Assembly: GCA_965232235.1 (NCBI GenBank)
Contig: OZ246960.1
Coordinates: 871,058 to 935,057 of the forward strand
DNA length: 64,000 bases
Origin: Candidatus Poribacteria bacterium
Lineage (GTDB): Bacteria; Poribacteria; WGA-4E; JAJDTR01
Reading direction: 5' to 3'
Shown here: positions 1,929 to 58,129 of the stretch, one piece after another
Layout: each line of letters starts with the position of its first letter
Position numbering within the stretch: the first letter of the stretch is position 1
Translations under genes and position numbers: made by a program
Notes under the pieces: generated by a model
The model's input: the letters and a program-made list of their open reading frames with translations, nothing else
The model's database searches: none
Told to the model about the DNA's origin: nothing

Positions 1929-3035
1929 ATGATATGGACTCGACGTTTAATGCGAACCGCTTTCATTTTCTTGGTAATGATGACTATATTGGCGAACGAA
2001 TCCGATGCGAATATCCGCGCCGAGTGGACTCAACTCACTGTCGCGCAGCCCATGGGGCGCGTGAACGCGCTTGAAACCGATGGACGCCGACTCTACGCCG
2101 GGACATGGAATGGTGTGTACATCTCCCTTGATGACGGTTACACCTGGGGTTCAAGCGAAGTCAAACACACGTGTACTGTAATTGCAACCCATCAAAATAC
2201 GGTGTATGCGGGAACATATGGCAACGGCGTAGTTCGCTCCGATGATCGTGGCGAGACATGGATGTCCAAAAACGACGGATTGCCCCTACCCGACGAACTC
2301 GACCAATACGGACGCGTTGAGCAAATCCTCGTCACCAGCTCCGGCACAGTCATCACTGTGACGAGCCTGGGTACGTATACATCGACCGACCGAGGTGAGA
2401 CATGGCACGGCGTAATAGACGACTGGATAGTGCACCAGGACGCGTGGGGAGCGCTCGACTGGCCAATAACCCGTAGTACGTTGTCGATGACTGAGTTCGA
2501 TGGTTATCTCTGGGGCGAAGCGGATGGCAGCATGTTCCGTTCCCCTGACAACGGCCACACGTGGGAATCTATTCCTCGTTTCGGACACCACCCGGCGCAC
2601 AACTGGGCGGTGTTCAATGATAAATTATATGTCGCCGGAGGAAAAGGCTTTGCACGATGGAACGAAGAAGGACTCCCTTTCCCTTGGGAGTATCGCATTA
2701 AAGGGTTTCCAAGCGATTCCGATGGGTATTTAGACTACGCGCCCAGTTTAACAAGCTTGGCTGTAAGCGGCGGCCGTCTATTTGCCGGACTTTACGATCA
2801 CGGCGTCTACATGTTTGATACACGCTCGGACACATGGATTCCCGCAGGTCTGCAGTGGCTTACAGTTAGTGCGCTCGTATCTCATCAATCCGAGCTGTAC
2901 GCAGCAACCTATGCGCTCGACGAAAGGCAGGCAGGCACCGTCCACACGCCCCAAGGGATCTACCGCGCTACAATTCTGGCCGTGCAGCCCTACGGCAAAG
3001 CCGCCACCACTTGGGGCGCCCTTAAAACAAAATGA
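1929..3035 (+). CDS. secreted BNR/Asp-box repeat beta-propeller protein, paralog 1 (368 aa)
   Basis: Signal peptide; Asp-box motifs SLDDGYTW, SDDRGETW, STDRGETW, SPDNGHTW; C-terminal tail PYGKAATTWGALKTK. Confidence 0.75.
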   Translation: MIWTRRLMRTAFIFLVMMTILANESDANIRAEWTQLTVAQPMGRVNALETDGRRLYAGTWNGVYISLDDGYTWGSSEVKHTCTVIATHQNTVYAGTYGNGVVRSDDRGETWMSKNDGLPLPDELDQYGRVEQILVTSSGTVITVTSLGTYTSTDRGETWHGVIDDWIVHQDAWGALDWPITRSTLSMTEFDGYLWGEADGSMFRSPDNGHTWESIPRFGHHPAHNWAVFNDKLYVAGGKGFARWNEEGLPFPWEYRIKGFPSDSDGYLDYAPSLTSLAVSGGRLFAGLYDHGVYMFDTRSDTWIPAGLQWLTVSALVSHQSELYAATYALDERQAGTVHTPQGIYRATILAVQPYGKAATTWGALKTK

Positions 3036-3817
3036 AATACCTAATCTTCATACTGAGTTTGTTAAGCCTTATTGTTGCCACTGTTCTGCTCGTGATCGCC
3101 ATCAGCTCTTGCACGCCGGACGTCCATGCCGAAATTCGGGCACTCTGGGTTCCACTCGTTGGCACGGAGTCCCTGAAGCACGTGAACGCACTTGAAACCG
3201 ACGAATTCCGTCTCTACGCCGGGACGTCTGCCGGACTCTACATCTCCCGAGATGACGGTGCCACCTGGAGTTTAACTGACCTTACACACGCTTGTCAGGC
3301 AATCGCAATCCGTCAAAATGCAGTGTATGCAGGAACACAAATGCGCGGGGTATTTCGCTCCGATAATCGCGGCAACACATGGAAGACCAAAAATAACGGA
3401 TTCCACGAAGTGCGTTGGGGCGGCGAAGATCGCGGATTTCCATTCATTCATCAGATCCTCTTCTCTAATACCGGCACAGTCATCACAGTGATGTACCACC
3501 AGGGCACGTATACATCGACCGACCGCGGCGAGACATGGGACAGCGTCATAGACGACTGGAGACTAGGCGACTGGCAAATAGGCGGTGATATCTGGTCGAT
3601 GACCGAGTTTGACGGATATCTCTGGAGCGCCATTTCGGTGCACACCACGCTCCGTTCCCCTGACAGCGGTCAGACGTGGGAACATATTGACCACTTCGAA
3701 CACACCCGGGTAATCGGCGTAGAGGTAGCCGTCCCGCTGTGTTTTGAACACATCCGGGGGTATTTCGTCCGGTACAGCGAAGCAGTGATGAACTATAGCC
3801 AGCCAGCAAACGAGTGA
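3032..3817 (+). CDS. BNR/Asp-box paralog 2, C-terminally truncated or diverged (261 aa, lacks the conserved tail)
   Basis: ATGA start/stop overlap with paralog 1; Asp-boxes SRDDGATW, SDNRGNTW, STDRGETW, SPDSGQTW; similarity to paralog 1 is lost after about aa 225, suggesting a frameshift. Confidence 0.55.
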   Translation: MKYLIFILSLLSLIVATVLLVIAISSCTPDVHAEIRALWVPLVGTESLKHVNALETDEFRLYAGTSAGLYISRDDGATWSLTDLTHACQAIAIRQNAVYAGTQMRGVFRSDNRGNTWKTKNNGFHEVRWGGEDRGFPFIHQILFSNTGTVITVMYHQGTYTSTDRGETWDSVIDDWRLGDWQIGGDIWSMTEFDGYLWSAISVHTTLRSPDSGQTWEHIDHFEHTRVIGVEVAVPLCFEHIRGYFVRYSEAVMNYSQPANE

Positions 3818-3851
3818 TACATATTTCACTTTCATGGTGCCACCCTCTTAT

Positions 3852-3890
3852 GTTTTTGTTCGTAGGTTGGGTTGAACACCGTGAAACCCA
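3852..3890 (+). repeat. REP-like element gtaggttgggttgaac..gtgaaacccaac
   Basis: GTAG followed by inverted repeat ttgggtt/aacccaa; the same family sits at 19680, 22770 and 27838. Confidence 0.6.
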
Positions 3891-3891
3891 A

Positions 3892-4836
3892 CTATCTAGC
3901 TTCCTGAACGCGGCGTTTTAAGCTGCCCCATGTAGTCGCCAGCTTGTTCTCGGGCTCCACTGCGAGCGAACCGCCGGGGAAGAGGTGATATCCGTTGCCG
4001 GACGAATCTCGATACATGGCGGCTCCGGGACCTTCATCAAAGTGCCACAACGCTATAGTCTGTACATCCAACCGGAGTCGACGTCTCGGACGAATTTCCG
4101 CCTCTCCGTAACGGAATCCCTTGGAAACCCGAACTTCGTCGATGTAGCCCTTCATGGATCCAAATCTGTATCCCCATCCCCAACCATTTCGTTTGGTGCC
4201 GCCAATTAGCAGCGGCGCATCGGTGCGGTTCATCGCGCTGCTAAAGGTGAAACCTCCCCAGTCGCCGTCATAATACCATATAACTTTCATACGATTTCCT
4301 TTCACAGAAATCTGATAGGCAATATGCACCCAACGCTTCAACGGGAAATCGTGGGGCGGAATCTCAGGTCCAAAAATCCCCGTACTCATGCCACTCTGTA
4401 CTCCATATTCGATATATGTAGTACCTTCTGGATCCCCCCGTCTAATACCAGAGCCTAAGTATCTTCCCGTAACAGAAACGAAATAGCTGCTGGGCTTGGC
4501 AAAGATATTCCACCGTCCCTCGTGAGAATTCGCAGCGAAATTCCAATCTTTCGGTTTATCGGTCAAATAAATCCACGCTTCAACCGTGATGCCCTTGCCT
4601 TCCACGTCGTCGAAGACACCGGGGTAATCGGCGTAGACATACCCGTCCGGGCGCAGTGTCAACACATCGCGGGGAACCTTCTCGGGTAAAGCGACTACTT
4701 TTGGCACGACAAATAACAATGCAATCAAGGTCAGGGCGCAAAATGAATATACTGTCCTGAATCTCATGATTCCCGCCGATTGAGTGTTTGCTAGTGTAAT
4801 CCCCTGCATTTCGATTCCTCCCATTTTATGTTTCAT
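3892..4836 (-). CDS. secreted LamG/concanavalin-A-like lectin-fold protein
   Basis: Hydrophobic signal from the internal Met (MRFRTVYSFCALTLIALLFV), so the likely start is 4767; WVHIAYQ..YIDEVRVS is laminin-G-like; C-terminus KLATTWGSLKRR shares the TWGxLK tail. Confidence 0.5.
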   Translation of the reverse strand: MKHKMGGIEMQGITLANTQSAGIMRFRTVYSFCALTLIALLFVVPKVVALPEKVPRDVLTLRPDGYVYADYPGVFDDVEGKGITVEAWIYLTDKPKDWNFAANSHEGRWNIFAKPSSYFVSVTGRYLGSGIRRGDPEGTTYIEYGVQSGMSTGIFGPEIPPHDFPLKRWVHIAYQISVKGNRMKVIWYYDGDWGGFTFSSAMNRTDAPLLIGGTKRNGWGWGYRFGSMKGYIDEVRVSKGFRYGEAEIRPRRRLRLDVQTIALWHFDEGPGAAMYRDSSGNGYHLFPGGSLAVEPENKLATTWGSLKRRVQEAR

Positions 4837-4903
4837 GTAGGTGTGCCGAGTGATCTTCCTTCATAAGTATTTTCCGCTAGAAGCCGATTTCCCTAACTAA
4901 TTC

Positions 4904-4918
4904 GCAAAAATCTTGCCA
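4904..4918 (-). promoter_or_regulatory. sigma-54 -24/-12 promoter match (minus strand TGGCAA-gattt-TTGC) upstream of the LamG gene
   Basis: Reverse complement of 4904..4918 is TGGCAAGATTTTTGC with GG-N10-GC spacing, about 70 bp upstream of ATG 4836. Confidence 0.45.
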
Positions 4919-4977
4919 ATCCCTAACCGTACAGGCGCACAAGCCAAAAAAAATCCGGGACGTGCAATGACTTGAAT

Positions 4978-5625
4978 TTATGAGCCAGCCGGGACAGATG
5001 CAAATCTGTGGCATGAGAGTAGGGCTAAATTGCGATACAACCCATAGCCATCAAGATAGAGATGATGTTCAAGAGGTACGGGACGCTCAAGTTCCTGAAC
5101 CACATCAATCTCGATCTCGCGGACGCTGCGCATCCAATCCCCGAACTGGTTGAGATTGGGTATGGTCGCGCTTAAACACGCAAATTTTATATGCTGTGGG
5201 GCGAAAATTATGCTCTCTTCCCATACCGTCCCTCGTTCAACATCGTTGATGTAATGAATCTCGTCGAATATTGCGTATTCTACATCCGCCAAGCGTTCTA
5301 TATCGTCGAAAATCGTGTTTCGGAAGATTTCCGTTGTCATCAACAGAATTTGGGCATAAGGATTGAGGACAACATCTCCCGTTAAAATACCGACCCGATC
5401 GCCATATCGCTCAAAGAAATCCCGATATTTTTGGTTGCTCAACGCTTTGATTGGCGCCGTGTAAATCACACGCCGATCGCCCTGAATGCATTTATCAACC
5501 GCATACTCCGCTACCACCGTTTTTCCCGCCCCGCTTGGAGCGGCGACAATCACAGAACGCTCATGATCTATTGCCCGGATAGCCTCTTCTTGGAACCGAT
5601 CTAGCTGTAAACCCCTGTAGAACAT
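4978..5625 (-). pseudogene. N-terminal fragment of a DEAD/DEAH-box (Ski2/Lhr-like) helicase
   Basis: Walker A APSGAGKT and DEIH box, but only about 200 aa; the reading frame ends at a 21-bp direct repeat (5022..5042) that recurs at 6052..6072. Confidence 0.55.
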
Positions 5626-5721
5626 TCAAATCTCCCAAACCCAAGTAACAGCCGCATGATTTTAACTGTTTCCACCCGTTTTGTCAAATGTGAATATCCG
5701 GGTGTAGGGGTCGCATCGCTT

Positions 5722-5800
5722 GGACCCATTGGGATCAACTTAAGGGATTTTGTCTAGTATCAGTGGTGTTCTCCGACGCAAAACCCTTAACTTAGTCCCA
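5722..5800. repeat. long imperfect palindrome (cccattgggatcaacttaaggg ... cccttaacttagtcccatagg)
   Basis: Inverted repeat seen directly; a half-copy recurs at 6030..6052. Confidence 0.45.
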
Positions 5801-5849
5801 TAGGATGGGGAGGAAATCTCTATCATCCCCCACACGGTAGGTGCGATCA

Positions 5850-5883
5850 AGCGAATGGATAATGAGTGCGATAGAGATCCCTT
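5850..5883 (-). repeat. copy of the R1 short repeat family (ctatcgcNctcattatccattcgcttgatc)
   Basis: Reverse complement matches the family consensus. Confidence 0.6.
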
Positions 5884-6129
5884 TCCAACCGCACCGGCAC
5901 CTACGGAAACCAGCGCCATGAGTCATCTCTTGTGGCGCACCCATCAGTGAACGAACTGGTATTCCCTCGCTCACGTCTACATGGAGATTAACAGTTCAAG
6001 ACATTGAAGCCGCGTGACTTGCACCCTAAAACGCTTAACTTGATCCCTATGGGGCTAAATTGCGATACAACCTATCCTGACGCTGAGCAACGTCAGACTA
6101 TCCGACGCATTCTTAATCGAATTGTGGTC

Positions 6130-6412
6130 CAAGATCGAACAGAAATGGTGCCCTACCAGCTTTGTTGAACGCGGGCACTGTTGGGAGAACTGCCAACGCC
6201 CCTCTTGTACAGAAATTGGACAACGATGTTCATATTTTAGGTACGAAAGCACGAAACGCCATTGCGTCTTAATGACACATCGGAGCACAATACCGATGAA
6301 ATTCGTGGGTTAGTGCCCGAATCGGGGCAACTTATGGGCGTGGCACACCACTTGCTCACGCTCTACTTGCGCAGTCAATCCGATAGCCATCAGTTCTAAG
6401 GGAGGCAATCCA
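6130..6412 (+). repeat. duplicated leader segment, copy B
   Basis: Shares the last ~280 bp of copy A, including the sigma-54 site and ribosome-binding-site region. Confidence 0.7.
6341..6355 (+). promoter_or_regulatory. sigma-54 promoter match TGGCAC-accac-TTGC, 58 bp upstream of ATG 6413
   Basis: Same position as in copy A. Confidence 0.55.
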
Positions 6413-7509
6413 ATGATATGGGCTCAAATTTTCACGCAAACCGCTTTCATTTTCTTAGTAATGATGACTATCCTAGCGAACGAATCGGATGCGAATATCC
6501 GCACACTTTGGCTTTCACTCACTGGCACGGAGGATATGGGAGAGATAAACACACTTGAATCCGATGGAAGCCGACTCTACGCCGGGACACGGGACGGACT
6601 CTACATCTCGGACGATAACGGTTACACCTGGCGTTTAACCGAGTTTAAACTGCCTGTTAAGGTAATGGCAACCAGCCCGCAATCAATATACGTAGGATCG
6701 AATGTTTATGACGGCCTCATTCAATCCGATGATCGTGGAAAGACATGGGAGCCCCTAAACAACGGGCTTGGATATATCGATGAAACCAACCGTTTAGACG
6801 ACGGTCCCGTTGGGTACGGAGTGTTTAAATACTTTGTGCACACCCCTTACGGCACCATAATCAGTGTAATGGCCTGCTGCACTGATGACTCGGCCGACGG
6901 CAGCGACACCTGGCGTGAGGCGCCATCCGACTGGCGAGTCGACGATACCGACTGGATATTAGGCTACGCTGTAAAGTTGTTGTACGGCATGGATCACTAT
7001 CTGGTGGCCGGCTGGGTTAGCGGTATACTACGCTCCCGTGAGGGACAACCCGGCGGCCGCCTCATCTCTTCCTTCGGTGGGAACGTCGACCAGATCGCTT
7101 GGCCGACCGCCTGGGCCGTGCTCAATAATAGAGTGTATGTAACCTGAGCACCATACTTGTCAAACGCCCCGTTTTTCGCGCTATACGACCCGGAGCGCAC
7201 TTGGCAGTATCTCAACGTAGGGCTTCCGGAGAGCGACGGTGTATGGCTCCGATACAATATAAACACCTTCGCTGCTAACCGCGGCCGCCTCTTCGCCGGA
7301 CTTAACCGCCCCGCGGCGTATACATGTTTGATGAGCGCTCCAAAACGTGGATTCCGGCAGGCCTAGACGGGTTGACCGTTAGTTCGCTCAAATCCCATCA
7401 AACCGATCTGTACGCAGCAACCAATGAAGGAATCTACCGCGCTTCAATCCCGACCGTGCAGCCCTACGGCAAAGCCGCCATCATCTGGGGCACCATCAAA
7501 CAAAAATGA
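6413..7509 (+). pseudogene. BNR/Asp-box paralog 3, disrupted by at least two frameshifts
   Basis: Homology to the intact paralogs continues across three frames (6413..7147, 7157..7366, 7324..7509); ends with the tail PYGKAAIIWGTIKQK. Confidence 0.6.
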
Positions 7510-8576
7510 AATACACAACCCTCATCGTCACTCTATTAGCCCTGCTCCTCGTCATCTCCCTCGCCCGCGCCGAGTGGGAACTCCTTCTTGCCACGCATAA
7601 CATGAGCGGCGTGACGGCACTTGAAACCGACGGCAGCCGCCTCTTCGCCGGGGGATCGTTGGAAGGACTGTATACCTCGGACGATAATGGTGACACCTGG
7701 TGTACAACCGCCCTGACGCACGGATACGTTCAGGCAATTGCTATCAGCGGCGATGCGGTATATGCATTCGTGAATGAGCACGGCATGTTTCGCTCCGACG
7801 ATTACGGGAAGACGTGGAACCCGATAAACGACGGGCTCCGCACAATTCATGACCATACCCTCGACATCCGGATCCCGTACATTAACCAAATACTCGTTAC
7901 CCGTTCCGATATGGTCATCGCTGCGGGCGGCTTTGATGGGACGTACATATCCCGCGACCGAGGAGAGACATGGCACTTCGCGGCCGATTGGTCGTTTCCC
8001 TGCCCCAAAGGGCCCGAGGTGCCCGACTTTACATTCAGCGATTCCATCGATTCGATGATCGAATACGACGGTTATTTGTGGGCAGCCGCGTGGTTCCACG
8101 TATACCGTTCCCCCGACGACGGCTCCACATGGGAATGCGTGCCAGTATTGCCAAGGCTCGGCGAAGCCTACGACTGGGCAGTGCTCAACAATCAATTATA
8201 CGTCGCCGGAGGACACGGATTTGTACGATGGAACGAAGGCGAACTCGCTTGGGACGATCTCAACAACGGGCTGCCGGATTCCCCTGATTTGAGAAGCCTT
8301 GCCGTTAACCGCGGCCGCATCTTTGCCGCAGTTAGGGCGTCATCTATGATCAGACCAGGGGCTTATAGGACTGTCGCACACGGCGTGTACGAGTTCGATG
8401 AGCAATCCGAAACCTGGTTTCCCGCAGGCCTAGAGGGAGTGGCGGTATACTTGGTCGCATCCGATCAATCCTACCTCTATGCCTCGACGTACAAGGGCAT
8501 TTACCGCGCTTCAATCCCCGTCGTGCAACCCTACGGCAAAGCCGCCGCCACGTGGGGCGCCATCAAACGACCATGA
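7506..8576 (+). CDS. secreted BNR/Asp-box beta-propeller protein, paralog 4 (356 aa)
   Basis: Signal peptide; SDDNGDTW, SDDYGKTW, SRDRGETW, SPDDGSTW; tail PYGKAAATWGAIKRP; ATGA overlap with the upstream gene. Confidence 0.75.
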   Translation: MKYTTLIVTLLALLLVISLARAEWELLLATHNMSGVTALETDGSRLFAGGSLEGLYTSDDNGDTWCTTALTHGYVQAIAISGDAVYAFVNEHGMFRSDDYGKTWNPINDGLRTIHDHTLDIRIPYINQILVTRSDMVIAAGGFDGTYISRDRGETWHFAADWSFPCPKGPEVPDFTFSDSIDSMIEYDGYLWAAAWFHVYRSPDDGSTWECVPVLPRLGEAYDWAVLNNQLYVAGGHGFVRWNEGELAWDDLNNGLPDSPDLRSLAVNRGRIFAAVRASSMIRPGAYRTVAHGVYEFDEQSETWFPAGLEGVAVYLVASDQSYLYASTYKGIYRASIPVVQPYGKAAATWGAIKRP

Positions 8577-8584
8577 AAATGTAT

Positions 8585-8618
8585 CTGGTGCTTCCTCTCG
8601 ATTGAAAGGAAGCACCAG
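8585..8618. terminator. bidirectional hairpin terminator between convergent genes
   Basis: Perfect 12-bp stem ctggtgcttcct / aggaagcaccag with a 10-nt loop; a U-run follows on the minus-strand side. Confidence 0.45.
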
Positions 8619-8629
8619 ATGAGACTCCC

Positions 8630-9145
8630 TTAAGCAACGGTTATCTCGTGAGTGTTTCCAGACGAACCCGGATTAGGTGCCGGCTTGGGCGGGCTGCCTT
8701 GCGTTTGCGCATTTTGGAAACCCACGCTAGTGTAGGCCTCGATCTTCACCTTGTCGCCCGGTTCGAGAGGATCATCCAACTCGAACGTATAGACACGATC
8801 ATTCTCCCAAGAGGAATTGCCTTTGAGGTCTTCCATGTCGTCTTCGTCAAACGTGTCGCCCGAGTCGACCCTTATCACGCCCTCGTTACGATTTTGTCGG
8901 GGTGGCGCCGTCTGATCGGAAAACACATCGGGAGGATAGCCTCCGCCTCTATCGATGTTAACCTCATGCTTATACTCGATATCGAAAGTCTGGCGGCCGT
9001 CGTCCTTGTTTTCGATATCAAATCGGTGTTTGCTCCGGGTTGTGATCTCATCCCTGGCGGCGTTCACCGATACATTAATGTCAAAGCACTCCAAAGACGC
9101 CGTGGTTTGGTGGCTGTTGTATTGCTTGAGTGGACCGCGTACCAT
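8630..9145 (-). CDS. hypothetical protein (171 aa)
   Basis: ORF track; no motif recognised. Confidence 0.3.
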   Translation of the reverse strand: MVRGPLKQYNSHQTTASLECFDINVSVNAARDEITTRSKHRFDIENKDDGRQTFDIEYKHEVNIDRGGGYPPDVFSDQTAPPRQNRNEGVIRVDSGDTFDEDDMEDLKGNSSWENDRVYTFELDDPLEPGDKVKIEAYTSVGFQNAQTQGSPPKPAPNPGSSGNTHEITVA

Positions 9146-9204
9146 AGTTAAATCTCCTTAATTTCACCCTCCTACGAGTGTCACCGCTTATACTGAGGTA
9201 TAAA

Positions 9205-9732
9205 ATGAAAAGACTAAGCCTGCTCATATTGCTCATCGCCGCCTGCGGCGCCGAAGACACGATGCGCGAGCCCGACATTGAGCCAGTCCTTCCGGTCGTC
9301 GACATCGGGGCCTACGACATCAACTCCCAGTATTTCGTATATCAACTCGAGTCTGATCACACGGTAGACCGACCCATATACGTCTGGGTAGTTAAGACCT
9401 ATAGAGGGCATTATTCGAACGACAGGTTTCGCCGCTTTGAAATCTGCGACGTCGGCGGGCCTGCAAGGATAATAGCGGGTCTGCAAGAGTGCATCGGAAT
9501 TGCGGAAAGAACGATTGGCACCAGGAAAGAAACGGATCATCAATTCTCTAAGTCCAATGTCCCCTTTCAAGAGGGCGAGCAGGGTATTGTCACCTCTGTC
9601 GTCATAGAAATTTCGCAGTTGCCGCCGCAGGCCGAATGGTATATAGAGAGAGGCCACCCATTCACCGTAGGCGTCTCCACCCTGATGTTCACGACGCATC
9701 AAAACATTATTCGTCGACAATGGCAAACGTGA
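9205..9732 (+). CDS. hypothetical lipoprotein
   Basis: MKRLSLLILLIAAC lipobox from the internal Met at 9205. Confidence 0.4.
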   Translation: MKRLSLLILLIAACGAEDTMREPDIEPVLPVVDIGAYDINSQYFVYQLESDHTVDRPIYVWVVKTYRGHYSNDRFRRFEICDVGGPARIIAGLQECIGIAERTIGTRKETDHQFSKSNVPFQEGEQGIVTSVVIEISQLPPQAEWYIERGHPFTVGVSTLMFTTHQNIIRRQWQT

Positions 9733-9809
9733 AGGCATAAAAAAGGCCGCTGTCGCCTGGGGAGCTATAAAACAACCACGACTAAAGTAGACATAGAACA
9801 AGGTGTATC

Positions 9810-9908
9810 ATGAAAATCTATCTGCTCGTACTGCTCGTGCTCCTCGGCTGCCGGGAGACGGAGAATCGACCTGTTGTCGAACAGCCCGAAGCGTTCTCCG
9901 GACGGTAG
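9810..9908 (+). pseudogene. remnant lipoprotein signal peptide (32 aa, MKIYLLVLLVLLGC...FSGR*) inside leader copy C
   Basis: Translation by eye; ends with the same ..FSGR stop context as 1231..1608. Confidence 0.4.
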
Positions 9909-10324
9909 AATCGCAGCGTCCGCTTGTTAATCACCGTTTCCCTCACGAGTTGGCGTTTCATAGACACATCCTTGAAATTGTTAAGACAGAGGCACTGTTG
10001 CGAGAACTGCCAATGCCCCTATTGCACAAAAAATGAACATTGGCGTTCACTTGTTAGATACGAATGCACGAACCGCTAAGACACAGCAGGAGGTGAGTTC
10101 GATGCAATTCGTGGGGTAGTGCTAATACAGGGTAACTTATGGACTAGGACAGTCCTGGGACGTGATAGATAGTGGCGCACAACTTGCATACATTCCAATA
10201 ACGCAATCAATTCGAGAACCATCAACTCTACAAGAGACGGCAAATTTTGTGCACTCAACTCGGATCGACTTTCACGAAGTGCTGCCGCTATGAGAACTAA
10301 CACTGCCGAAAAGGTGAAAACCCT
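9880..10324 (+). repeat. duplicated leader segment, copy C
   Basis: First ~200 bp nearly identical to copy A. Confidence 0.7.
10173..10187 (+). promoter_or_regulatory. sigma-54-like promoter match TGGCGC-acaac-TTGC
   Basis: GG-N10-GC spacing retained; 138 bp upstream of ATG 10325. Confidence 0.4.
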
Positions 10325-10972
10325 ATGAACGACTCCAACTTGTTCGGACGAATCGTTAAGGCGGCGGTGGTCGTCGCCCTATACGCATTCTTTTTCATCG
10401 GTGCTGTCGTCCTGATAATCGGCTGCGGCGAGGAACGTGAGGATATCCTGCAGCCGGCCTTGCCAACGATTAATCTGAGAGCACAAGACATCGATCCGAG
10501 CTTTCGTCAGTTTGCATATGCCATCACCGCCAGCGAGCCGCTCCCCTATTCTATAACACTGCGCGTAGACACCACTGCCGACGTATTCGCAAACGGGCAC
10601 TTCCAAATTGTGAGAAATAAGGAAATCCTCACTTTCAAGCGTGGTTCACAGACGGTCTACGGATTCTACAACAGATATTTCCTGCAAGCGTTCCTGTATC
10701 AAAACAGCTTTTTTTTCGATAAGGAGTTCGGGACGCTGGAATGCGTTCGCGGCGGCGGCGCCGGTTCCGTCCCAGACCCCCCGCGTGGGGCTCACCCCGT
10801 GATTCAGATAAAGGTAATGATCTCACATCCACTGCCCAACGACGACCATTGCGTCAGCCTTGCCGGCGGTGCCTACACTATTGAGAGTTCGAAACTCACT
10901 TTAAGGGCGCCTGACGATCTCATCGAGACGCTGTTTCCTGACCCGGACACCCGCCCATGGGAAGTCCGATAA
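10325..10972 (+). CDS. hypothetical membrane-anchored/lipoprotein (215 aa)
   Basis: N-terminal TM helix ending in IIGCG. Confidence 0.4.
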   Translation: MNDSNLFGRIVKAAVVVALYAFFFIGAVVLIIGCGEEREDILQPALPTINLRAQDIDPSFRQFAYAITASEPLPYSITLRVDTTADVFANGHFQIVRNKEILTFKRGSQTVYGFYNRYFLQAFLYQNSFFFDKEFGTLECVRGGGAGSVPDPPRGAHPVIQIKVMISHPLPNDDHCVSLAGGAYTIESSKLTLRAPDDLIETLFPDPDTRPWEVR

Positions 10973-11013
10973 TACCCCTTATCGGACTTCCTTAAACCCG
11001 AGGTAAAGCACCA

Positions 11014-11230
11014 TGAAATATACCTGCTGCTACTCGTTACCCTCTTCGCCTGCAGCGAAACCGATAATACACTTATGCCGGTAGCATGGTTCCATACGGG
11101 GAAGGAGTCTGGACCTGGTCTGGTAGACCCGACTGGCCCGATTACGACACCTAGATATTCGAGTCTTTCTGTCTGGTGTCGGATATCCCCATGCCGGCCA
11201 CAACCTACATTTTGGTAGAAGACCGTTTCG
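11014..11230 (+). pseudogene. frameshifted lipoprotein remnant
   Basis: The +1 frame after codon 4 reads LLLLVTLFACSETDNT.., a lipobox. Confidence 0.35.
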
Positions 11231-11419
11231 TCCACATGGCCGAAGGCGAGCTCCGATCCCAGGAAGTCGTTTTCTGGAGTATATGTCCGCCCCGGACCAC
11301 TAACGACTCGCCCCCTAGGTTCGAGGCGCAAATAAAGCCGATGCACGAACGATCCCGACACTTGCCGTCTAACCCTTGAAGTTAGATACTGTACAGCAAT
11401 TACTATCCATCAGAACACC

Positions 11420-12223
11420 GTGTATGCCGGAACATGGTACGACGGCGTATTTCGCTCCGACAGTCATGGCAACACATGGCAACCCATAAACAACGGAATC
11501 CGCTTAATCGATCGGGGTAGCGAAGAACTCGGGCCTCCAATCATTGAGCAAATACTCGTGACGAGTTCCGGAACCGTCATCGCTGTGGGGTACCACAGCG
11601 GTACGCATACATCGACCGACCGAGGCAAGACATGGCACGACGTAACACTAGAGTGGAAAGTGCGCCGAGACGCATGGGGACTGCCCGACCGGATAATAGG
11701 CGATGGTATCTGGTCGATGGCGGAGTTCGACGGCTATCTTTGGGCAGCCTATTCGAGATACCAAGTATTCCATTCCCGTGACAACGGCGTAACGTGGGAA
11801 CATACCAGCGGATTCGGGCATGGCCGGGTTGCCGACTGGGCGGTGCTTAATGATCGATTATACGTGGCCGGGGACGAAGGCTTTGGGCGATGGAACGAAG
11901 CCGAACTCGCGTGGGACGATCTCAGCCGAGGGCTTCCGCCAGCTGGCAGGTGGCCCGACCGTCCAGACCTCTCAATACAAACCCTGGTTGTTCATCGCGG
12001 ACGTATCTTCGCCGGGCTTCGGAACAACGGCGTGTGGACGTTTGATGAGCGCTCCGAAACGTGGATTCCCGCTGGTCTCGACGGGTTGACCGTTACCTCG
12101 CTCGTATCCCATCGATCCGATCTGTACGCAGCAACCAAAGAGGGCATCTACCGCGCTTCAATCCCGACCGTGCAACCCTCCGGTAAAGCCCTCACGACAT
12201 GGGGCACCGTTAAAACAAAATGA
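11420..12223 (+). CDS. BNR/Asp-box paralog 5, 5'-truncated
   Basis: Homology to paralog 1 starts about 11390 (..TAITIHQNTVYAGTWYDG..), equivalent to residue ~90 of the full-length proteins; no signal peptide; Asp-boxes and the tail PSGKALTTWGTVKTK are present. Confidence 0.55.
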   Translation: MYAGTWYDGVFRSDSHGNTWQPINNGIRLIDRGSEELGPPIIEQILVTSSGTVIAVGYHSGTHTSTDRGKTWHDVTLEWKVRRDAWGLPDRIIGDGIWSMAEFDGYLWAAYSRYQVFHSRDNGVTWEHTSGFGHGRVADWAVLNDRLYVAGDEGFGRWNEAELAWDDLSRGLPPAGRWPDRPDLSIQTLVVHRGRIFAGLRNNGVWTFDERSETWIPAGLDGLTVTSLVSHRSDLYAATKEGIYRASIPTVQPSGKALTTWGTVKTK

Positions 12224-12235
12224 CGGAGACCGCTC

Positions 12236-13309
12236 ATGAATAACAAACTCAGCTTAACGTTTATCCTAACCCCACTCCTGCTCGCGATCTGGCTCTCCAA
12301 TTTCGTCCAAGATGCCCGCGCGGAGTGGGAACATATCCCCGGCACCGAGGTCATCGGGAGCGTCGAACTGCTTGAAAGCGACGGTGTCCGTCTTTACGCC
12401 ATAGGTGACGCCGGCTTTTACCTCTCCTTCGATGACGGTTACACCTGGCGTCGCCGCAACATTGGTCGCGGCATCGAGGACTTTTATATCACCGCCATTG
12501 GAAGCGGGGATGGTGCCGTCTATGTCGGTACGGCAGACCACGGCGTGATCCGCTCCGACGACGGCGGCAACACCTGGGAGCACATTAACGAAGGGCTCCA
12601 CATCTTCGACAGCCCGAAATGGGGGGCCCACTACGGAAAGGTTGAACAAATGCTTGTCACAGGTTCCGGCATGGTCATCAACGTAGGATACCACCGTGGC
12701 ACGCACATATCTAACAACCGAGGCGAGAAATGGCGCGACGTAATGATGGAATGGAAGGCATCCCAAGGACCGGGACAGCACGATTGGGCTTTCGGCGACG
12801 GCATCTGGTCGATGACCGAGTTCGACGGCTATCTCTGGGCCGTCTATTCGGACGCCCCGGTATTCCGGTCCCCCGACCAGGGCGCCACTTGGGAGCTTCT
12901 TCCAATCCGAAGCTACGGCAGCATCCGCGACTTTGGGCGCGTACACGACTGGGCGGAGCTTGGGGATAAGCTGTACATCGCCGGAATCGGCGGCTTCGGG
13001 CGATGGAACGAAGCCGAACTTGCTTGGGACGATTTCAGCCAAGGACTCCCGCCGGAACGGATAGCAAGCCTAGCGGTTAATCGCGGCCGTATCTTCGCCG
13101 GAACAAGGAACAACGGCGTGTGGGTGTTTGATGGCCGATCCGAAAGGTGGATTCCCACAGGTCTGGACGGGTTGACCGTTACTTCGCTCGAACCCCATCA
13201 ATCCGATCTGTACGCGGCAACCAAAGAGGGCATCTACCGTGCTTCAATCTCGACCGTGCAACCCTACGGCAAAGCTGCCGCCACATGGGGCGCCATAAAA
13301 CAACGATGA
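12236..13309 (+). CDS. secreted BNR/Asp-box beta-propeller protein, paralog 6 (357 aa)
   Basis: Signal peptide; SFDDGYTW, SDDGGNTW, SPDQGATW; tail KAAATWGAIKQR. Confidence 0.75.
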   Translation: MNNKLSLTFILTPLLLAIWLSNFVQDARAEWEHIPGTEVIGSVELLESDGVRLYAIGDAGFYLSFDDGYTWRRRNIGRGIEDFYITAIGSGDGAVYVGTADHGVIRSDDGGNTWEHINEGLHIFDSPKWGAHYGKVEQMLVTGSGMVINVGYHRGTHISNNRGEKWRDVMMEWKASQGPGQHDWAFGDGIWSMTEFDGYLWAVYSDAPVFRSPDQGATWELLPIRSYGSIRDFGRVHDWAELGDKLYIAGIGGFGRWNEAELAWDDFSQGLPPERIASLAVNRGRIFAGTRNNGVWVFDGRSERWIPTGLDGLTVTSLEPHQSDLYAATKEGIYRASISTVQPYGKAAATWGAIKQR

Positions 13310-14427
13310 ATTACCTAATCTTCGTACTTGCACTATTAAGCTTTCTTGTTGCCTCCGCTCTCCTCGTGCTCTCCCTCGACAGTTGCTCGCCGAACGCAGA
13401 TGCCGCTTTCCAGGCCGACTGGATTCACCTCTCCGGCACTGAGGCGCTGGAGGCGGAGCTTCTCGAAACCGATGGCAACCGCCTCTACGCCGCCACTTGG
13501 GAAGGAGTGTACATCTCCTTGGATAATGGTTACACCTGGCGTTATGCCGAGATTGCCCACGGTCTTGAACAATTTTATATTATCGCAATTGGAATAGGGC
13601 GCAATGCCGTGTATGCAGGGACACAACACCACGGCGTATATCGCTCCGACAGCCACGGCAACACCTGGAAGCCCAAAAGAAACGGTATACACATATTCGA
13701 TTTAGATGAACCCGATCTAGAACCCCATTACGCAGCCGTTAAGCAAATACTCGTCACCCGTTCCGGCACAGTCATTGCCGTGGGGTACCATGCGGGCACC
13801 TATATATCCACCAACCGAGGCGAAGCATGGCATGGCACCGACGAGTGGCGGTACACCAGAGAACATCTGGGCTTGGACGACGTGCCAATAGGCTATGATA
13901 TCTGGTCGATGACCGAGTTCGACGGCTATTGGTGGGCAGTTACTTCGAGCGGTTCGTACAAATTGTGCCGTTCCTCTGACGACGGCGAAACGTGGGAAGG
14001 TCTTCCCTACTGGGTAGCCGGCGGAAGTATCGCCGAGTACCCTCATGTAGTCGATTGGATAGTGCTCAATGATCGGTTATACGTCGCCGGAGCTGGAGGC
14101 CTCGGGCGATGGAACGAAGCCGAACTTGCTTGGGACGATTTCAGCCAAGGACTCCCGCCGGAACGGATAGCAAGCCTAGCGGTTAATCGCGGCCGTATCT
14201 TCGCCGGAACAAGGAACAACGGCGTGTGGGTGTTTGATGAGCTATCCGAAACGTGGATTCCCGCTGGTCTCGACGGGTTGAACATTTACGACCTCATATC
14301 CCATCAATCCGACCTGTACGCCGCCACGGACGAGGGCATCTACCGCGCTTCAATCCCGACCGTGCAACCCTACGGCAAAGCCGCCGCAACTTGGGGCGCC
14401 CTGAAACACGAAGCTCTCGCCAAATAG
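13306..14427 (+). CDS. secreted BNR/Asp-box beta-propeller protein, paralog 7 (373 aa)
   Basis: True start is MNYLIFVLALLSF at 13306 (ATGA overlap); the upstream part of ORF 13147.. is an antisense artefact; 133 bp at 14103..14236 are identical to 13001..13133. Confidence 0.75.
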   Translation: MNYLIFVLALLSFLVASALLVLSLDSCSPNADAAFQADWIHLSGTEALEAELLETDGNRLYAATWEGVYISLDNGYTWRYAEIAHGLEQFYIIAIGIGRNAVYAGTQHHGVYRSDSHGNTWKPKRNGIHIFDLDEPDLEPHYAAVKQILVTRSGTVIAVGYHAGTYISTNRGEAWHGTDEWRYTREHLGLDDVPIGYDIWSMTEFDGYWWAVTSSGSYKLCRSSDDGETWEGLPYWVAGGSIAEYPHVVDWIVLNDRLYVAGAGGLGRWNEAELAWDDFSQGLPPERIASLAVNRGRIFAGTRNNGVWVFDELSETWIPAGLDGLNIYDLISHQSDLYAATDEGIYRASIPTVQPYGKAAATWGALKHEALAK

Positions 14428-15650: not shown

Positions 15651-16757
15651 TTACCTACCACTCCAGACGGCTCTTAACAAATCCCCCGTGTAAATCGCGC
15701 TGGGCAACACCTCGTACTCCGCCCAGCACCCGGGGCACTTGTTGACCCATTCCCGCTGCTTCCCTATCCTGCCATTCGCCCACAAATCGGCGAATTTCTC
15801 CTCCTTCAGATTCCCGACGCTTGTCGTGTTGAACTGGCACGTCGGCACACGCCCATCCGGCAGCAGCCGCAGGTGCGAATTAAGTGCGACGCATTTCGGA
15901 TTGGGCACGCCCTCACCTTGAAGCAACCGATTCCGGATGCCCTGCAGGTAGTAGCGTTTCGCGAGCCGGTCAAGCAGCGGATAATTCGTGAGGTCCTTCT
16001 CAATCTCGTCGAACAGCGTTTGAAGATGCTCCTCCGTGAATTCGCCAAACGTCGTAAACTGACCAATCTGCGACGGAGCAACCTCCAGCTCCTCCTCCAA
16101 GTTATAGGTCGCGCTTAGGTCGTAAGCCATCACGACATTGTTCCGAACACCCAACGGCTCTAGGAACTCCCGCAAGCGCTTATAGTGTTCAACCCCCTCC
16201 GCATCAACTATCGACTGATTCACCGACAGACTCATCCGCAGCTCCTTCTGACGCGGCGCCAGAGCATTGAGCGTCCTCACGATGAAATCCCACGCCTTGT
16301 CATGGCCCCGCACATGGTTATGCTTCTCATCCATACCGTCAACGGAAACGAGCATACTCAACGGAACATCCCGCCGCCGCTTCTCGCAGAACTGCACAAT
16401 CCGGTCTGTCAGGAAACCGTTCGTCGTGACATGAATCATTAGCGGTTTAAGTTTGTCTTGGACGAGATGAGCGATGTCCAATAGGTCACGCCGAACAAAC
16501 GGCTCACCACCCGTCAACCGCACGGCGTCCATCCGCGGCAGTTTATTGAAGATGTTTCCAATCTCGTCAATGCTCAAATCGTTCGGCGAAGGCTTGCGCC
16601 ACGAGTCGCACATGATGCACCTCGCATTGCACGAGAACGTCACGATATACGTCAAACACCGGGGTAGTGTCACGGCGCGGCGGCGGGCGCGCCCAACCGT
16701 GTGAAGAAACGAGAGCAGGCGATTCTTGATCTCGAAATGAGACGGGTGTCCGCTCAT
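15651..16757 (-). CDS. radical SAM protein
   Basis: CNARCIMC (Cx3Cx2C) near the N-terminus; GGEP motif. Confidence 0.75.
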   Translation of the reverse strand: MSGHPSHFEIKNRLLSFLHTVGRARRRAVTLPRCLTYIVTFSCNARCIMCDSWRKPSPNDLSIDEIGNIFNKLPRMDAVRLTGGEPFVRRDLLDIAHLVQDKLKPLMIHVTTNGFLTDRIVQFCEKRRRDVPLSMLVSVDGMDEKHNHVRGHDKAWDFIVRTLNALAPRQKELRMSLSVNQSIVDAEGVEHYKRLREFLEPLGVRNNVVMAYDLSATYNLEEELEVAPSQIGQFTTFGEFTEEHLQTLFDEIEKDLTNYPLLDRLAKRYYLQGIRNRLLQGEGVPNPKCVALNSHLRLLPDGRVPTCQFNTTSVGNLKEEKFADLWANGRIGKQREWVNKCPGCWAEYEVLPSAIYTGDLLRAVWSGR

Positions 16758-45612: not shown

Positions 45613-46728
45613 ATGACACTTCTGAGAGTTGTTTTGATAGTGGTTCTGGCGGCAGCCTCGAATCCGGTAGTTGCCGACCTAAAGATTCGTTTTTGGTCAG
45701 ACCGCGATGACGGCGAAAGTTCACTCTTCGTCATGAATCCTGACGGATCCGACCCGGTTAATGTAAAAGAGGAGATGGTTCTACCCACAGCGCCAGCCTG
45801 GTCGCCCGACAGAACGAAGATTGCCTTCACGTTTGGCCGCTATGAGAAATCCGATATTTATGTGATTGATATTGACGGTTCCAATCTTGTGAATCTTAGC
45901 AATAAAGGCGGCGGCGACTACAGCCCACGTTGGTCTCCGGATGGAACGAAGGTGCTCTGGTATGGATGGCCGCCGAGGAAGGGTGAAGGAGGCGCAAGAA
46001 TCTTCGTGAATGATGCGGACAGCTCAAATCTGCGTGACTTGGGCCCGGGTATCTGGCCCAAATGGTCACAAGATGGGACGATGATTGGCTTTACTCTCTA
46101 CGGGATCGTAGAAACTGCATTTATAGTAAACGCCAATGGTTCAGGCAGGCGCGCGGTGACCGAGCGGATTATAGACACTCAATTTCTTTCTTGGTCGCCC
46201 GATGAAACGAAGATTGGTCTTGCCAAACATATTCAGCATAACTCACACAAGGATCTTACGCAGTGGTGCGTCTATGTAATAGACATTGATGGTTCCAATT
46301 TAGTGCATCTTTCAAAAGATCTCCGAAACCTCGACGCCCATGGCGCTGCTTGGTCGCGGGATGGGAGGAAGATTGCTTTTTACACAAACGGCCTTGCCGT
46401 CGATGTTGGCGATATTTTCGTCGCGAATGCTGATGGCACGAACCGGATTAATCTCACTGAACACCATCCTCGCGGAAAAGACCGCAGCCCGCAATGGTCT
46501 AGAGATGGAAGGGAGATCCTGTTTGAAACCGACCGAGACGGCAACCGTGAGGTCTACATTATGAACGCGGACGGCACGAATCCGGTAAATCTCACGAATC
46601 ACCCCGCGGACGACGGGGCGGCGTCTTGGTTCACGTTCGACACCGACCTTCTTACAAGAGTCCCCTTGCCGTGGGAAACGCTGATTACGACGTGGGGACA
46701 GATAAAGGCAGTTGCCAGTGACCGGTGA
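45613..46728 (+). CDS. secreted PD40/TolB-like beta-propeller repeat protein, paralog 1
   Basis: Signal peptide from the internal Met; repeated WSPDGTKIAF/WSRDGRKIAF/WSQDGTMIGF units; tail LITTWGQIKAVASDR. Confidence 0.65.
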   Translation: MTLLRVVLIVVLAAASNPVVADLKIRFWSDRDDGESSLFVMNPDGSDPVNVKEEMVLPTAPAWSPDRTKIAFTFGRYEKSDIYVIDIDGSNLVNLSNKGGGDYSPRWSPDGTKVLWYGWPPRKGEGGARIFVNDADSSNLRDLGPGIWPKWSQDGTMIGFTLYGIVETAFIVNANGSGRRAVTERIIDTQFLSWSPDETKIGLAKHIQHNSHKDLTQWCVYVIDIDGSNLVHLSKDLRNLDAHGAAWSRDGRKIAFYTNGLAVDVGDIFVANADGTNRINLTEHHPRGKDRSPQWSRDGREILFETDRDGNREVYIMNADGTNPVNLTNHPADDGAASWFTFDTDLLTRVPLPWETLITTWGQIKAVASDR

Positions 46729-47005: not shown

Positions 47006-48118
47006 ATGAAATATCTGATGGTTGTATTGACATTAGTCTTGCTAGTTGCCTCAACGAGTTACCCAGTATTCGCCGATCTAAAGATTTTCTTTGAGTCCGG
47101 CAGAGATAACGAAACTTGGTCCTGGTTCTCGCTCTTTATGATGGATCCTGATGGCTCCAACCCTGTCAATCTTTCCAAGGCACTCGGCGTAAAATTAGGC
47201 GCCGTCTGGTCACCTGATGGGACAAAAGTTCTTTATTCGTCAGGCCCCGATTTTGAACGCGAGATACTTATGATGGATCTGGACAGTTCTAATGTTTTAA
47301 ATCTTACGAATGACCCCGGATCAGACAGTTTTCCGCGCTGGTCGCCTGATGGAACGCTGATTGCTTGGAATAGATGGCCGCCGCGCGGACTTGGCGGAGC
47401 AGTGGAGATCTTCACGATGAATGCCGACGGCTCCAATCCGCGCAACTTGGGGCGCGGTTTTCGTCCCAAGTGGTCTCCCGATGGGACAATGATAGGGTTT
47501 ATTCTCTCTGGCAGACCGGATAATGCTTTCGTAATGAATGCCGATGGCAGCGGTCGGCGGCGGGTGACCAATGACCTTCCGAACACTAAGTTTGTTTCGT
47601 GGTCGCGCGACGGAACAAAGATCGCCTTTTATCATCGACCTTTGATTGGATTTAATAAGAATAAGATCTACGTCGTAAACCTTGACGGAACCGGTTTGGT
47701 CGAACTCACCAAAGACCTAGCTGATATTGACCATTTCGGCGCCGCTTGGTCGCCGGACGGAACGAAGATAGCTTTTTATTCCTCGGAACTAGGCTTGAAT
47801 TGGTCCCACATCTACGTCGTGAATACCGATGGCACGAATCGGGTTAATCTTACCATACACCATCCACTTGGCATCAACAGGGTGCCCCAGTGGTCTCCGG
47901 ACGGAAGGGAAATTCTGTTTCAAACCAAACGCGATGGCAACTGGGAGATTTACCTCATGAACGCGGACGGTTCCGATCCGGTAAATCTCACGAATAACCC
48001 GTTCAACGATGAGCATCCCGCCTGGTTCAGATTCGATCTCCCGACAACATCGATCTCGCCGCAGGAAAAACTAATCACTTCTTGGGGACAGATAAAGGCA
48101 GTGGCCAGTGATCGGTGA
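47006..48118 (+). CDS. secreted PD40/TolB-like beta-propeller repeat protein, paralog 2
   Basis: Signal peptide; WSPDGTK repeats; tail LITSWGQIKAVASDR. Confidence 0.65.
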   Translation: MKYLMVVLTLVLLVASTSYPVFADLKIFFESGRDNETWSWFSLFMMDPDGSNPVNLSKALGVKLGAVWSPDGTKVLYSSGPDFEREILMMDLDSSNVLNLTNDPGSDSFPRWSPDGTLIAWNRWPPRGLGGAVEIFTMNADGSNPRNLGRGFRPKWSPDGTMIGFILSGRPDNAFVMNADGSGRRRVTNDLPNTKFVSWSRDGTKIAFYHRPLIGFNKNKIYVVNLDGTGLVELTKDLADIDHFGAAWSPDGTKIAFYSSELGLNWSHIYVVNTDGTNRVNLTIHHPLGINRVPQWSPDGREILFQTKRDGNWEIYLMNADGSDPVNLTNNPFNDEHPAWFRFDLPTTSISPQEKLITSWGQIKAVASDR

Positions 48119-48289: not shown

Positions 48290-48410
48290 TCTTGTTAGTC
48301 CATCCTATTCCTTAATCGGTTGCTTGATCTATTCACTCGGTTGCGGGATTTCTATCGCATAAGATGTACTATCGCCCTCGCTATTCACTCGGTTGATCCT
48401 CTCCAATGCT
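48290..48410 (+). repeat. R1-family repeat cluster
   Basis: Seen directly. Confidence 0.5.
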
Positions 48411-49961: not shown

Positions 49962-50108
49962 GAATTACCTCCGTAATGCGTAATAGGGCCTCTATCGCAC
50001 GGGACTTAACTATCGATCAACGGAACGGATAGTGACTGCGATAGGAAGTCCTACTCGTTATTCGCTCGTGTGATCGTTAGCAGCCAATTTGCTTAGCATA
50101 GTCTGTTC

Positions 50109-50137
50109 TTGACTCTAATCTCACAATCTGCTATAAT
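50109..50137 (+). promoter_or_regulatory. near-consensus sigma-70 promoter TTGACT-N17-TATAAT
   Basis: TTGACT at 50109..50114, 17-nt spacer, TATAAT at 50132..50137; AAGGAAA ribosome-binding site then ATG at 50196. Confidence 0.6.
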
Positions 50138-50195
50138 GCCATCGTCGCTAGCGAAACGCGACAATGCGAATCCTCCTCTTGCAAAGGAAAACGCT

Positions 50196-58031: not shown

Positions 58032-58129
58032 TTTTGCCTCCGACGGCGGTTGGTCGATGGTGTTGTCCGTGACGATGCTGGGAATGCAGGGGTTCGTTGG
58101 GGGACATTATCGCACATGAGCTGCCGATT

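Follow-up and report, generated by a model that had tools for sequence, protein, structure and literature searches.

Why should exported proteins with no resemblance to one another end in the same few residues? The question is raised by a 64,000-nucleotide stretch of the genome of a Candidatus Poribacteria bacterium (assembly GCA_965232235.1, contig OZ246960.1, positions 871,058 to 935,057; hereafter the window), in which six-frame translation finds a shared tail on five intact or 5'-truncated BNR genes, one Laminin_G_3 (LamG) gene and two PD40 genes. A previous sequence-only reading had placed this tail at the extreme C-terminus of the three families, which the translation confirms, and had likened it to a sorting or recognition tag, a proposal now supported by the position of the tail, its independence of fold, its predicted disorder, selection at the protein level, the exported nature of its carriers and its capture by phages. 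The observation is confirmed and generalised here to the whole phylum Poribacteria. The cysteine synthase encoded in the window belongs to a protein cluster that bears the name of this phylum at NCBI, and the contig measures 5.63 Mb. On balance the tail is probably, though by no means securely, a C-terminal targeting tag that is read in trans and would route or tether exported binding modules in the envelope; the mechanism set out below is what we infer for it.

The 17-residue tail, provisionally named 'TTWG-CTERM', follows the consensus [L/T/F]-[A/P/S]-V-[E/D/S/Q]-P-x-[G/D]-K-L-[A/T/S]-T-T-W-G-x-[L/I]-K, after which come one to six mostly polar or basic residues. Numbered from the tryptophan, its positions are [L/T/F](-12), [A/P/S](-11), V(-10), [E/D/S/Q](-9), P(-8), [G/D](-6), K(-5), L(-4), [A/T/S](-3), W(0), [L/I](+3) and K(+4). 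The core of this motif had been recognised from the window alone, but the motif proves to be longer: P(-8) is invariant in the window, and conservation extends to positions on which the search pattern imposed nothing, namely V(-10) (95% across loci), L(-4) (71%), [A/P/S](-11) and [E/D](-9). The tail had also been described as having neither a transmembrane helix nor a basic cluster. The first part stands, as no transmembrane segment is found in it (mean maximal 12-residue Kyte-Doolittle score of 0.77 over the last 40 residues); the second needs qualifying, as 30% of the residues that follow the invariant K(+4) are R or K, and 40% of the tails end in R, about 15% in F or Y.

The distribution of the tail was assessed with a DNA scan for the strict pattern P-x2-K-x2-T-T-W-G-x-h-K in one genome per species (185,579 species genomes), which matched at least 119 loci. 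Among the 119 matches listed, 108 carry a properly placed tail, and 105 of these are labelled Poribacteria and three 'uncultured bacterium'; they come from 79 assemblies, 76 of them labelled Poribacteria. The listed carriers include a WGA-3G single-cell genome, two water-column metagenome-assembled genomes according to their record names (L066 and L085; Caspian Sea, 150 m, and ocean, 3000 m) and isolate MSPOR6 (L091), with a GC content of 34.5%. The remaining 11 listed matches are due to chance, nine of them in riboflavin synthase, one out of frame and one in an open reading frame (ORF) of 35 residues. The riboflavin synthase of Rhodobacterales has an internal look-alike, IPHTKEVTTWGDVK, 23 residues before its C-terminus (L012, L030, L031, L035, L065, L105, L108, L109 and L114), and is a predictable false positive for tag searches.

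Simple homology had been expected to betray itself through internal copies as frequent as terminal ones. In the listed poribacterial loci and the window together, 135 of the 136 occurrences of a relaxed motif lie 1-12 residues from the stop codon (mode 3), and the sole internal occurrence lies in an antisense ORF. The motif was absent in every frame from 720 kb of non-poribacterial metagenome loci used as a control, which comprised 79 CRTAC1-centred loci, 78 of them matching the query at only 40-50% identity and most from records unlike sponge samples; these loci had been meant as a reverse test of the link between CRTAC1-like neighbours and tagged genes, but served as a negative control alone. 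All of the best 120 homologs of LamG, and likewise of BNR, look poribacterial, which leaves no homolog outside the phylum in which another sorting signal might stand in place of the tail. A word-indexed search of 5.8 billion proteins with a 50-residue tail alignment returned only 13 short BNR or PD40 fragments and is uninformative on other families. Hidden Markov models (HMMs) of the tail alone, constructed either on the tails of the window or on 188 tails of LamG and BNR proteins, give the tails of other families a median of about 24 bits against about 27-29 bits for the best untagged ORFs, which does not suffice to search a library of 1.84 billion sequences.

Confinement of the motif to the window paralogs would have reduced the tail to a family trait, but once it is stripped from the carriers these fall into at least 23 clusters without mutual BLAST similarity, in keeping with the proposal that it sits on unrelated secreted families. 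Pfam matches among the carriers comprise Laminin_G_3 (73 of 135), CBM9, F5/8 type C, 3-keto-disaccharide hydrolase (DUF1080), DUF3108-like, DUF4960, Kelch, PD40 and BNR, and at least ten clusters have no Pfam family. An N-terminal hydrophobic h-region resembling that of a signal peptide is present in 122 of the 123 full-length carriers, which have a median length of 268 residues and include ten with a lipobox-like motif. The hydrophobic N-termini, the Pfam classes and the median length together suggest that the typical carrier is a Sec-exported, single-domain lectin-like beta-sandwich or beta-propeller.

Two loci depart from this type. An esterase of family PF00756 with an N-terminal hydrophobic segment (L276, 1422-2534, minus strand), ending in GARGKLPTTWGEMKRQ, is the only clearly enzymatic carrier seen; it lies on an IMG/VR contig of 51% GC whose origin, phage or host, is uncertain. 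At L098, two adjacent genes (4183-7350 and 7695-8000, both on the minus strand) share an Ig-like C-terminal domain of about 80 residues that precedes the tag and has the signature W-T-T-E-S-E-x-x-N-A-G-F-N-I…Y-Y-Y-x-x-E-D-V, which matched no family model. The larger product, of 1055 residues, has Lamin Tail Domains, three in number, and its tag is a variant reading TTWS. The Ig-like domain was considered as a counterpart of the C-terminal domain (CTD) of the T9SS (type IX secretion system) and rejected, the 102-residue ORF having no Pfam or NCBIfam match and its 1055-residue neighbour matching only the Pfam model LTD.

Conservation of the tail is confirmed independently by sets of LamG and BNR homologs that were gathered by whole-protein similarity. 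Of the 120 BNR homologs 113 retain the tail, at identities as low as 39%; of the 120 LamG homologs 88 retain it in strict form and about 20 more carry one-residue variants. Mean column identity across the LamG and BNR domains is only 40-43%, so that the tail is far more conserved than the domains that bear it. No synonymous codon is missing at the conserved V, P, K, L, T, T, G and K (four each for V, P, T and G; six for L), which indicates that selection acts on the protein. In the window, a degenerate DNA pattern for K-x3-[T/S]-W-G-x-h-K (AAR-N9-WCN-TGG-GGN-N4-TN-AAR) matches seven times against 0.00 expected from 100 dinucleotide-preserving shuffles, and the window families encode the same tail residues by different codons, so that their similarity lies at the protein level and does not reflect a DNA repeat.

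Modelling with AlphaFold2, a check of the tails that had been proposed, was run with alignments of 109 and 111 sequences and predicts that the tail is disordered beside two confidently folded and unrelated domains. The LamG protein is predicted to form a jelly-roll with pLDDT above 90, its tail residues 296-314 falling below 50, and BNR4 a seven-bladed propeller with pLDDT of about 95, its tail residues 343-356 likewise below 50. Foldseek places the LamG domain among LG/LNS/pentraxin folds and the BNR domain among the Ycf48, GH74 and BT4663 propellers. A near-invariant tail that packs in these models on neither of two unrelated folds would behave as a short linear motif, and it shows the features of that class: fold independence, restricted position, predicted disorder, protein-level selection and a single cellular route.

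The tag has also reached phages. Across 2.9 million viral contigs there are 78 occurrences of the relaxed motif, most of them scattered through the interior of ORFs or confined to tiny ones, and the genuine tags in IMG/VR comprise four of the five strict-pattern matches together with L266 from the relaxed scan. Four of the carriers are Laminin_G_3-like proteins of 307-317 residues (L120, 12770-13696, plus strand; L123, 8629-9552, plus strand; L266, 5468-6421, plus strand; and L122, which is partial) ending in …GLK[V/I]EPKxKLTTTWGEVKK, and those with a complete N-terminus begin with a hydrophobic segment. The fifth (L121, 3524-4372, minus strand) encodes a 282-residue protein with the tag 30 residues before its end. 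These five contigs have 31-36% GC and are of T4-like marine myovirus type, encoding DNA polymerase B (phrog_262, 946 bits), a UvsX that shares 56% identity with the protein of cyanophage P-TIM40, a clamp loader and a DnaB-like helicase, and the tagged gene adjoins Fe-S cluster assembly genes (NifU-like, IscA-like and glutaredoxin). This LamG protein is absent from cultured phages. As the GC content matches that of the low-GC poribacterial L091, pelagic Poribacteria are the probable hosts. That a phage should put the tag on its own secreted protein suggests a portable module, one that the machinery of the host can read.

The lack of a transmembrane segment, the predicted disorder, the phage copies and the failure of every Pfam-A and NCBIfam (release 20) model to cover the tail (24 tagged proteins searched against Pfam and 11 against NCBIfam, E<=1) favour a tag read in trans over shared descent of a domain. 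The mechanism would run in three steps. Cargo would be exported by Sec through its N-terminal signal peptides, the signal-like segments of which are observed; the flexible tail would then remain unfolded in the periplasm, as the models suggest; and one Poribacteria-specific envelope component would read it as a short linear motif, routing or tethering the cargo, mostly small lectin-like beta-sandwiches and beta-propellers, to a shared site such as the cell surface or outer membrane. Phages would tag their own secreted LamG protein presumably to exploit this host pathway.

Several points weigh against this picture. No reader, translocon or processing enzyme for the tag was identified. Many enzymes should bear the tail if it were a general signal for secretion, and the sampled cargo consists mostly of non-catalytic binding modules (LamG in 73 of 135), with a single esterase on a contig of uncertain origin. 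The variable final residues make a PDZ-type reader of a free carboxylate unlikely. P, K, TT, WG and K are fixed by the search pattern, so that their near-100% conservation in the sequence logo is partly by construction, and both the lack of the tail in other phyla and its count in each genome rest on a sampled, non-exhaustive listing.

By analogy, the logic of the tag would be that of the T9SS CTD, PEP-CTERM or dockerin, in which one C-terminal label serves many exported cargoes. Like the T9SS CTD, it is C-terminal, has no transmembrane segment, is required at the very C-terminus of many unrelated Sec-exported families, is restricted to a lineage and would connect many cargoes to one machinery. 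The CTD is, however, a folded beta-sandwich of 70-100 residues and the tag a 17-residue linear motif predicted to be disordered, and neither TIGR04183 (type A) nor TIGR04131 (type B) matched the NCBIfam-scanned tagged proteins. Poribacteria are reported to carry CTD-like domains, and their single-cell genomes to lack the structural genes of Por secretion (Kamke et al. 2014, PMC3909097).

The sortase-type signals, namely LPXTG, PEP-CTERM/exosortase, GlyGly-CTERM/rhombosortase, PGF-CTERM and MYXO-CTERM, are likewise short, lineage-specific, extreme C-terminal features of exported proteins, and occur on dozens of them per genome. The V-E-P of the tag superficially resembles (V)PEP, and the tag too has a short basic-rich end. 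These signals have a transmembrane helix between motif and basic end, whereas the tag has none and so fails the defining features of PEP-CTERM, LPXTG, GlyGly-CTERM, PGF-CTERM and MYXO-CTERM; it is also conserved over a 15-residue stretch, against a cleavage motif of only three to five residues. The PEP-CTERM model TIGR02595 and related NCBIfam CTERM models found no match among 11 tagged proteins (E<=1).

Dockerin-cohesin systems resemble the tag in that many secreted modules share a C-terminal adaptor, implying a common scaffold; a dockerin is a folded, duplicated Ca2+-binding module (F-hand) of about 70 residues, in contrast to the 17 of the tag, and no match to Dockerin_1 or cohesin in Pfam was found in 24 tagged proteins. 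PTS1 (read by the PEX5 TPR domain) and KDEL are, like the tag, short unstructured C-terminal peptides that work independently of fold, in their case through a soluble receptor, and tetratricopeptide repeat (TPR) proteins with signal peptides recur beside tagged genes, which recalls the PEX5 TPR reader. PTS1 and KDEL, however, occupy the last three or four residues with a free carboxylate, whereas the tag block is followed by 1-12 variable residues, and they are eukaryotic, the tag being bacterial and periplasmic or extracellular. The beta-signal of outer-membrane proteins, a terminal F, W or Y on a beta-barrel, was considered and rejected, since tagged carriers are soluble propellers and jelly-rolls, 40% of which end in R and only about 15% in F or Y.

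In the window, the tail is best represented in a tandem BNR array. BNR1 (1929..3035, plus strand) encodes an exported seven-bladed BNR/Asp-box propeller with C-terminus KAATTWGALKTK (tag at 2982-3035, VQPYGKAATTWGALKTK), and its stop codon and the start codon of BNR2 overlap as ATGA. BNR2 (3032..3817, plus strand) is a truncated paralog of 261 residues that lacks its C-terminal half and has no tail, and is abutted by the LamG gene (3892..4836, minus strand), whose product is an exported Laminin_G_3 protein with C-terminus KLATTWGSLKRRVQEAR (tag at 3892-3960, VEPENKLATTWGSLKRRVQEAR). A look-up of this exact protein in the contig index gave no record. BNR3 (6413..7509, plus strand) is a pseudogene in which the ORF at 6413-7147 is broken by a frameshift; its detached 3' ORF, ending at 7509, bears a degenerate tail at 7456-7509 (KAAIIWGTIKQK; VQPYGKAAIIWGTIKQK), KAAIIWGTIK, in which TT has become II. 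BNR4 (7506..8576, plus strand), an exported propeller, has C-terminus KAAATWGAIKRP (tag at 8523-8576, VQPYGKAAATWGAIKRP). A relic tail at 9743..9790 (plus strand), within a 34-residue ORF ending …KKAAVAWGAIKQPRLK, is probably the remnant of a lost BNR paralog. BNR5 (11420..12223, plus strand), 5'-truncated or frameshifted, has C-terminus KALTTWGTVKTK (tag at 12170-12223, VQPSGKALTTWGTVKTK); BNR6 (12236..13309, plus strand), a propeller, has C-terminus KAAATWGAIKQR (tag at 13256-13309, VQPYGKAAATWGAIKQR); and BNR7 (13306..14427, plus strand), whose true ATG at 13306 overlaps the BNR6 stop codon, has C-terminus KAAATWGALKHEALAK (tag at 14362-14427, VQPYGKAAATWGALKHEALAK). The claim that all BNR paralogs end in the tail thus holds for BNR1, 4, 5, 6 and 7 but not for BNR2, which has no tail, or for BNR3, which has a degenerate one on a detached ORF.

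The array is decaying: one copy is truncated, another is 5'-truncated, a third is frameshifted with II for TT in its tail, and of a further one an orphan relic tail is left; overlapping ATGA stop/start codons join intact neighbouring copies at 3032-3035, 7506-7509 and 13306-13309. Between the BNR genes are scattered two small families of weakly related proteins, at about 28% identity (13-336, 370-837 and 846-1334; 9178-9732 and 10325-10972); several members have a lipobox, some have a His-rich mature N-terminus (for example LLACSHEHPLKDHQHEH), and none is tagged. Both PD40 proteins carry the tail, as had been reported. PD40a (45613..46728, plus strand), an exported TolB-like PD40 propeller, has C-terminus TLITTWGQIKAVASDR (tag at 46663-46728, VPLPWETLITTWGQIKAVASDR), with T replacing K at W-5. 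PD40b (47006..48118, plus strand), also an exported propeller, has C-terminus KLITSWGQIKAVASDR (tag at 48053-48118, ISPQEKLITSWGQIKAVASDR), which reads KLITSWGQIK and so departs from the ending first described in having S in place of T at W-1. Directly after the two PD40 genes lies a prophage-like region (48381-64000), in which 50801-52594 encodes a terminase large subunit (phrog_38), 59783-61504 a portal protein and 62513-63985 an internal virion protein.

The main rival explanation, to which we give a minor though appreciable share of belief, holds that the tail is no export signal at all but a docking peptide in the manner of cohesin-dockerin, a non-covalent adaptor that would plug lectin-like modules into a common secreted or surface scaffold. 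It finds its candidate scaffolds among the neighbours of tagged genes. The most recurrent untagged neighbours in the 108 listed tag loci are CRTAC1-like proteins (six FG-GAP_3 repeats and UnbV_ASPIC; 18 loci) and periplasmic TPR proteins (16 loci), both with signal peptides, followed by fusions of extracytoplasmic function (ECF) sigma factors with WD40 or BNR ectodomains (12 loci) and by FGE-sulfatase, Gfo/Idh/MocA and PhyH proteins; the CRTAC1-like propeller and ASPIC proteins, the TPR proteins and the WD40 ectodomains are the candidates for such a scaffold. CRTAC1-like genes lie on the same strand as a tagged gene and within 500 bp of it in 10 of 18 cases, where a simple null of placement gives about 13% (p ~3e-5), and the tagged genes beside them span six different families. 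This proximity makes the CRTAC1-like and TPR proteins candidate partners of the tag. Recognition of terminal or linear peptides is a classical role of TPR domains and beta-propellers (PEX5-PTS1, WD40-degron), a precedent with which the Foldseek propeller matches may be compared. Docking also suits a cargo made up overwhelmingly of single-domain binding modules of 200-350 residues, with a tail, predicted to be disordered, appended straight to the domain. The co-occurrence is weakened, however, by the great abundance of TPR, WD40, VCBS and ASPIC families in Poribacteria (PMC3909097). Moreover, the window has eight tagged genes and no CRTAC1-like ORF on reading of its ORF lists (no profile search was made), and CRTAC1 homologs are widespread in other environments with no tag nearby, so that the family is not specific to the tag.

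Some of these neighbours form a recurrent same-strand gene set in which a periplasmic TPR gene is followed by a CRTAC1-like gene and then by one or two tagged genes of different families (L112, 1412-5251; L081, 3970-7847; L099, L101, L060, L094, L103, L070, L041 and L086). At L080 the TPR and CRTAC1 parts are fused in one protein of 1013 residues. ORFs of 680-990 residues, several of them directly upstream of tagged LamG genes, were also seen (L023, 507-3476; L086, 4308-7244; L064, 2-3302; L020, 1-3980). The N-termini of those at L023 and L086 match ECF sigma-70 models, that at L086 matches a BNR-type glycosylhydrolase model as well, and the member at L020 is a WD40 propeller.

Covalent modification or attachment through the tail is improbable. 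Its two invariant lysines, invariant tryptophan and Thr-Thr pair could in principle be substrates for cross-linking or modification, the possibilities including an Lpp-like linkage of a lysine in the C-terminal region to peptidoglycan, O-glycosylation of Thr-Thr and cross-linking of Lys to Trp by a radical SAM/SPASM enzyme with weak scores to many peptide-maturase models, the gene for which (15651-16757) lies 1.2 kb from the BNR array. Such scores reflect generic similarity within the superfamily and stay far under the cut-offs (for the Trp-Lys cross-linking WgkB model, 43.7 bits where 650 are required), and the gene was rejected as a tail modifier, having no homolog in the 108 listed tag loci. 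Radical SAM maturases act on small peptides in the cytoplasm, whereas the tagged cargo carries Sec signals, and neither an L,D-transpeptidase nor a glycosyltransferase recurs among tag-locus neighbours. Just downstream of the array, the radical SAM/SPASM gene overlaps a glycosyltransferase gene by four bases (15651-17875, minus strand); this pair, too, has no homolog in the listed tag loci and hence no link to the tag.

Plain homology, by which the tail would be the final piece in the structure of a single ancestral domain, or else a functionless 3' segment of the gene that is passively handed down, is already disfavoured and very improbable. Within the BNR, LamG and PD40 families the tail is indeed inherited with the domain, but at least 23 clusters, spanning beta-propellers, jelly-rolls, an alpha/beta-hydrolase and LTD proteins, have no detectable similarity outside it. 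The tail is unpacked in both AlphaFold2 models, is conserved far above the adjacent domain sequence and decays in the frameshifted BNR3 pseudogene.

A still smaller chance attaches to a cargo-loading peptide for an encapsulin or bacterial microcompartment, which is also disfavoured already. The tail is C-terminal, short, predicted to be disordered and ends in G-x-[L/I]-K, and encapsulin targeting peptides of the form …LxIGSLK resemble its …WGSLK ending; compartments in Poribacteria have been discussed earlier (PMC3909097). Cargo of encapsulins and microcompartments, however, is cytoplasmic, that of encapsulins being encoded beside an HK97-fold shell gene or fused to it, whereas 122 of 123 tagged carriers have a signal-peptide-like segment, their folds are lectin-like and extracytoplasmic, and no shell gene recurs among their neighbours or is linked to them. 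That the motif is an element of the nucleic acid (a repeat, for instance, or a terminator or recombination site) which merely happens to be translated might be suggested by its invariable position next to stop codons, but is refuted by the use of every synonymous codon and the synonymous differences between window families, which leave this idea practically no weight.

The preferred reading, a targeting tag read in trans, leads to a broader proposal, which we put forward tentatively and as somewhat short of probable. It would be a new sorting or surface-display pathway confined to Poribacteria, in which envelope machinery reads a 17-residue signal without a transmembrane helix on probably dozens to more than 100 exported proteins per genome, and which marine T4-like phages exploit. 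Literature searches for TTWG, and for Poribacteria with sorting-signal terms, found no description of the tag. Poribacteria, dominant among the symbionts of sponges, have never been grown in culture, and knowledge of their cell biology comes from genomes alone. Sorting-domain-like sequences without a known secretion system have been noted in them (Kamke et al. 2014, PMC3909097), and the pathway, if it exists, would point to unrecognised envelope machinery. As a single conserved label on a large share of the exported lectin-like proteins, the tag would then provide a peptide bait, an antibody epitope and an HMM for the capture of partners and the assignment of uncultured marine phages to hosts. 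Prokaryotic C-terminal sorting signals would gain a form with neither a transmembrane helix nor a folded domain, and the surface and secreted interaction proteome of Poribacteria would become predictable by a one-line rule.

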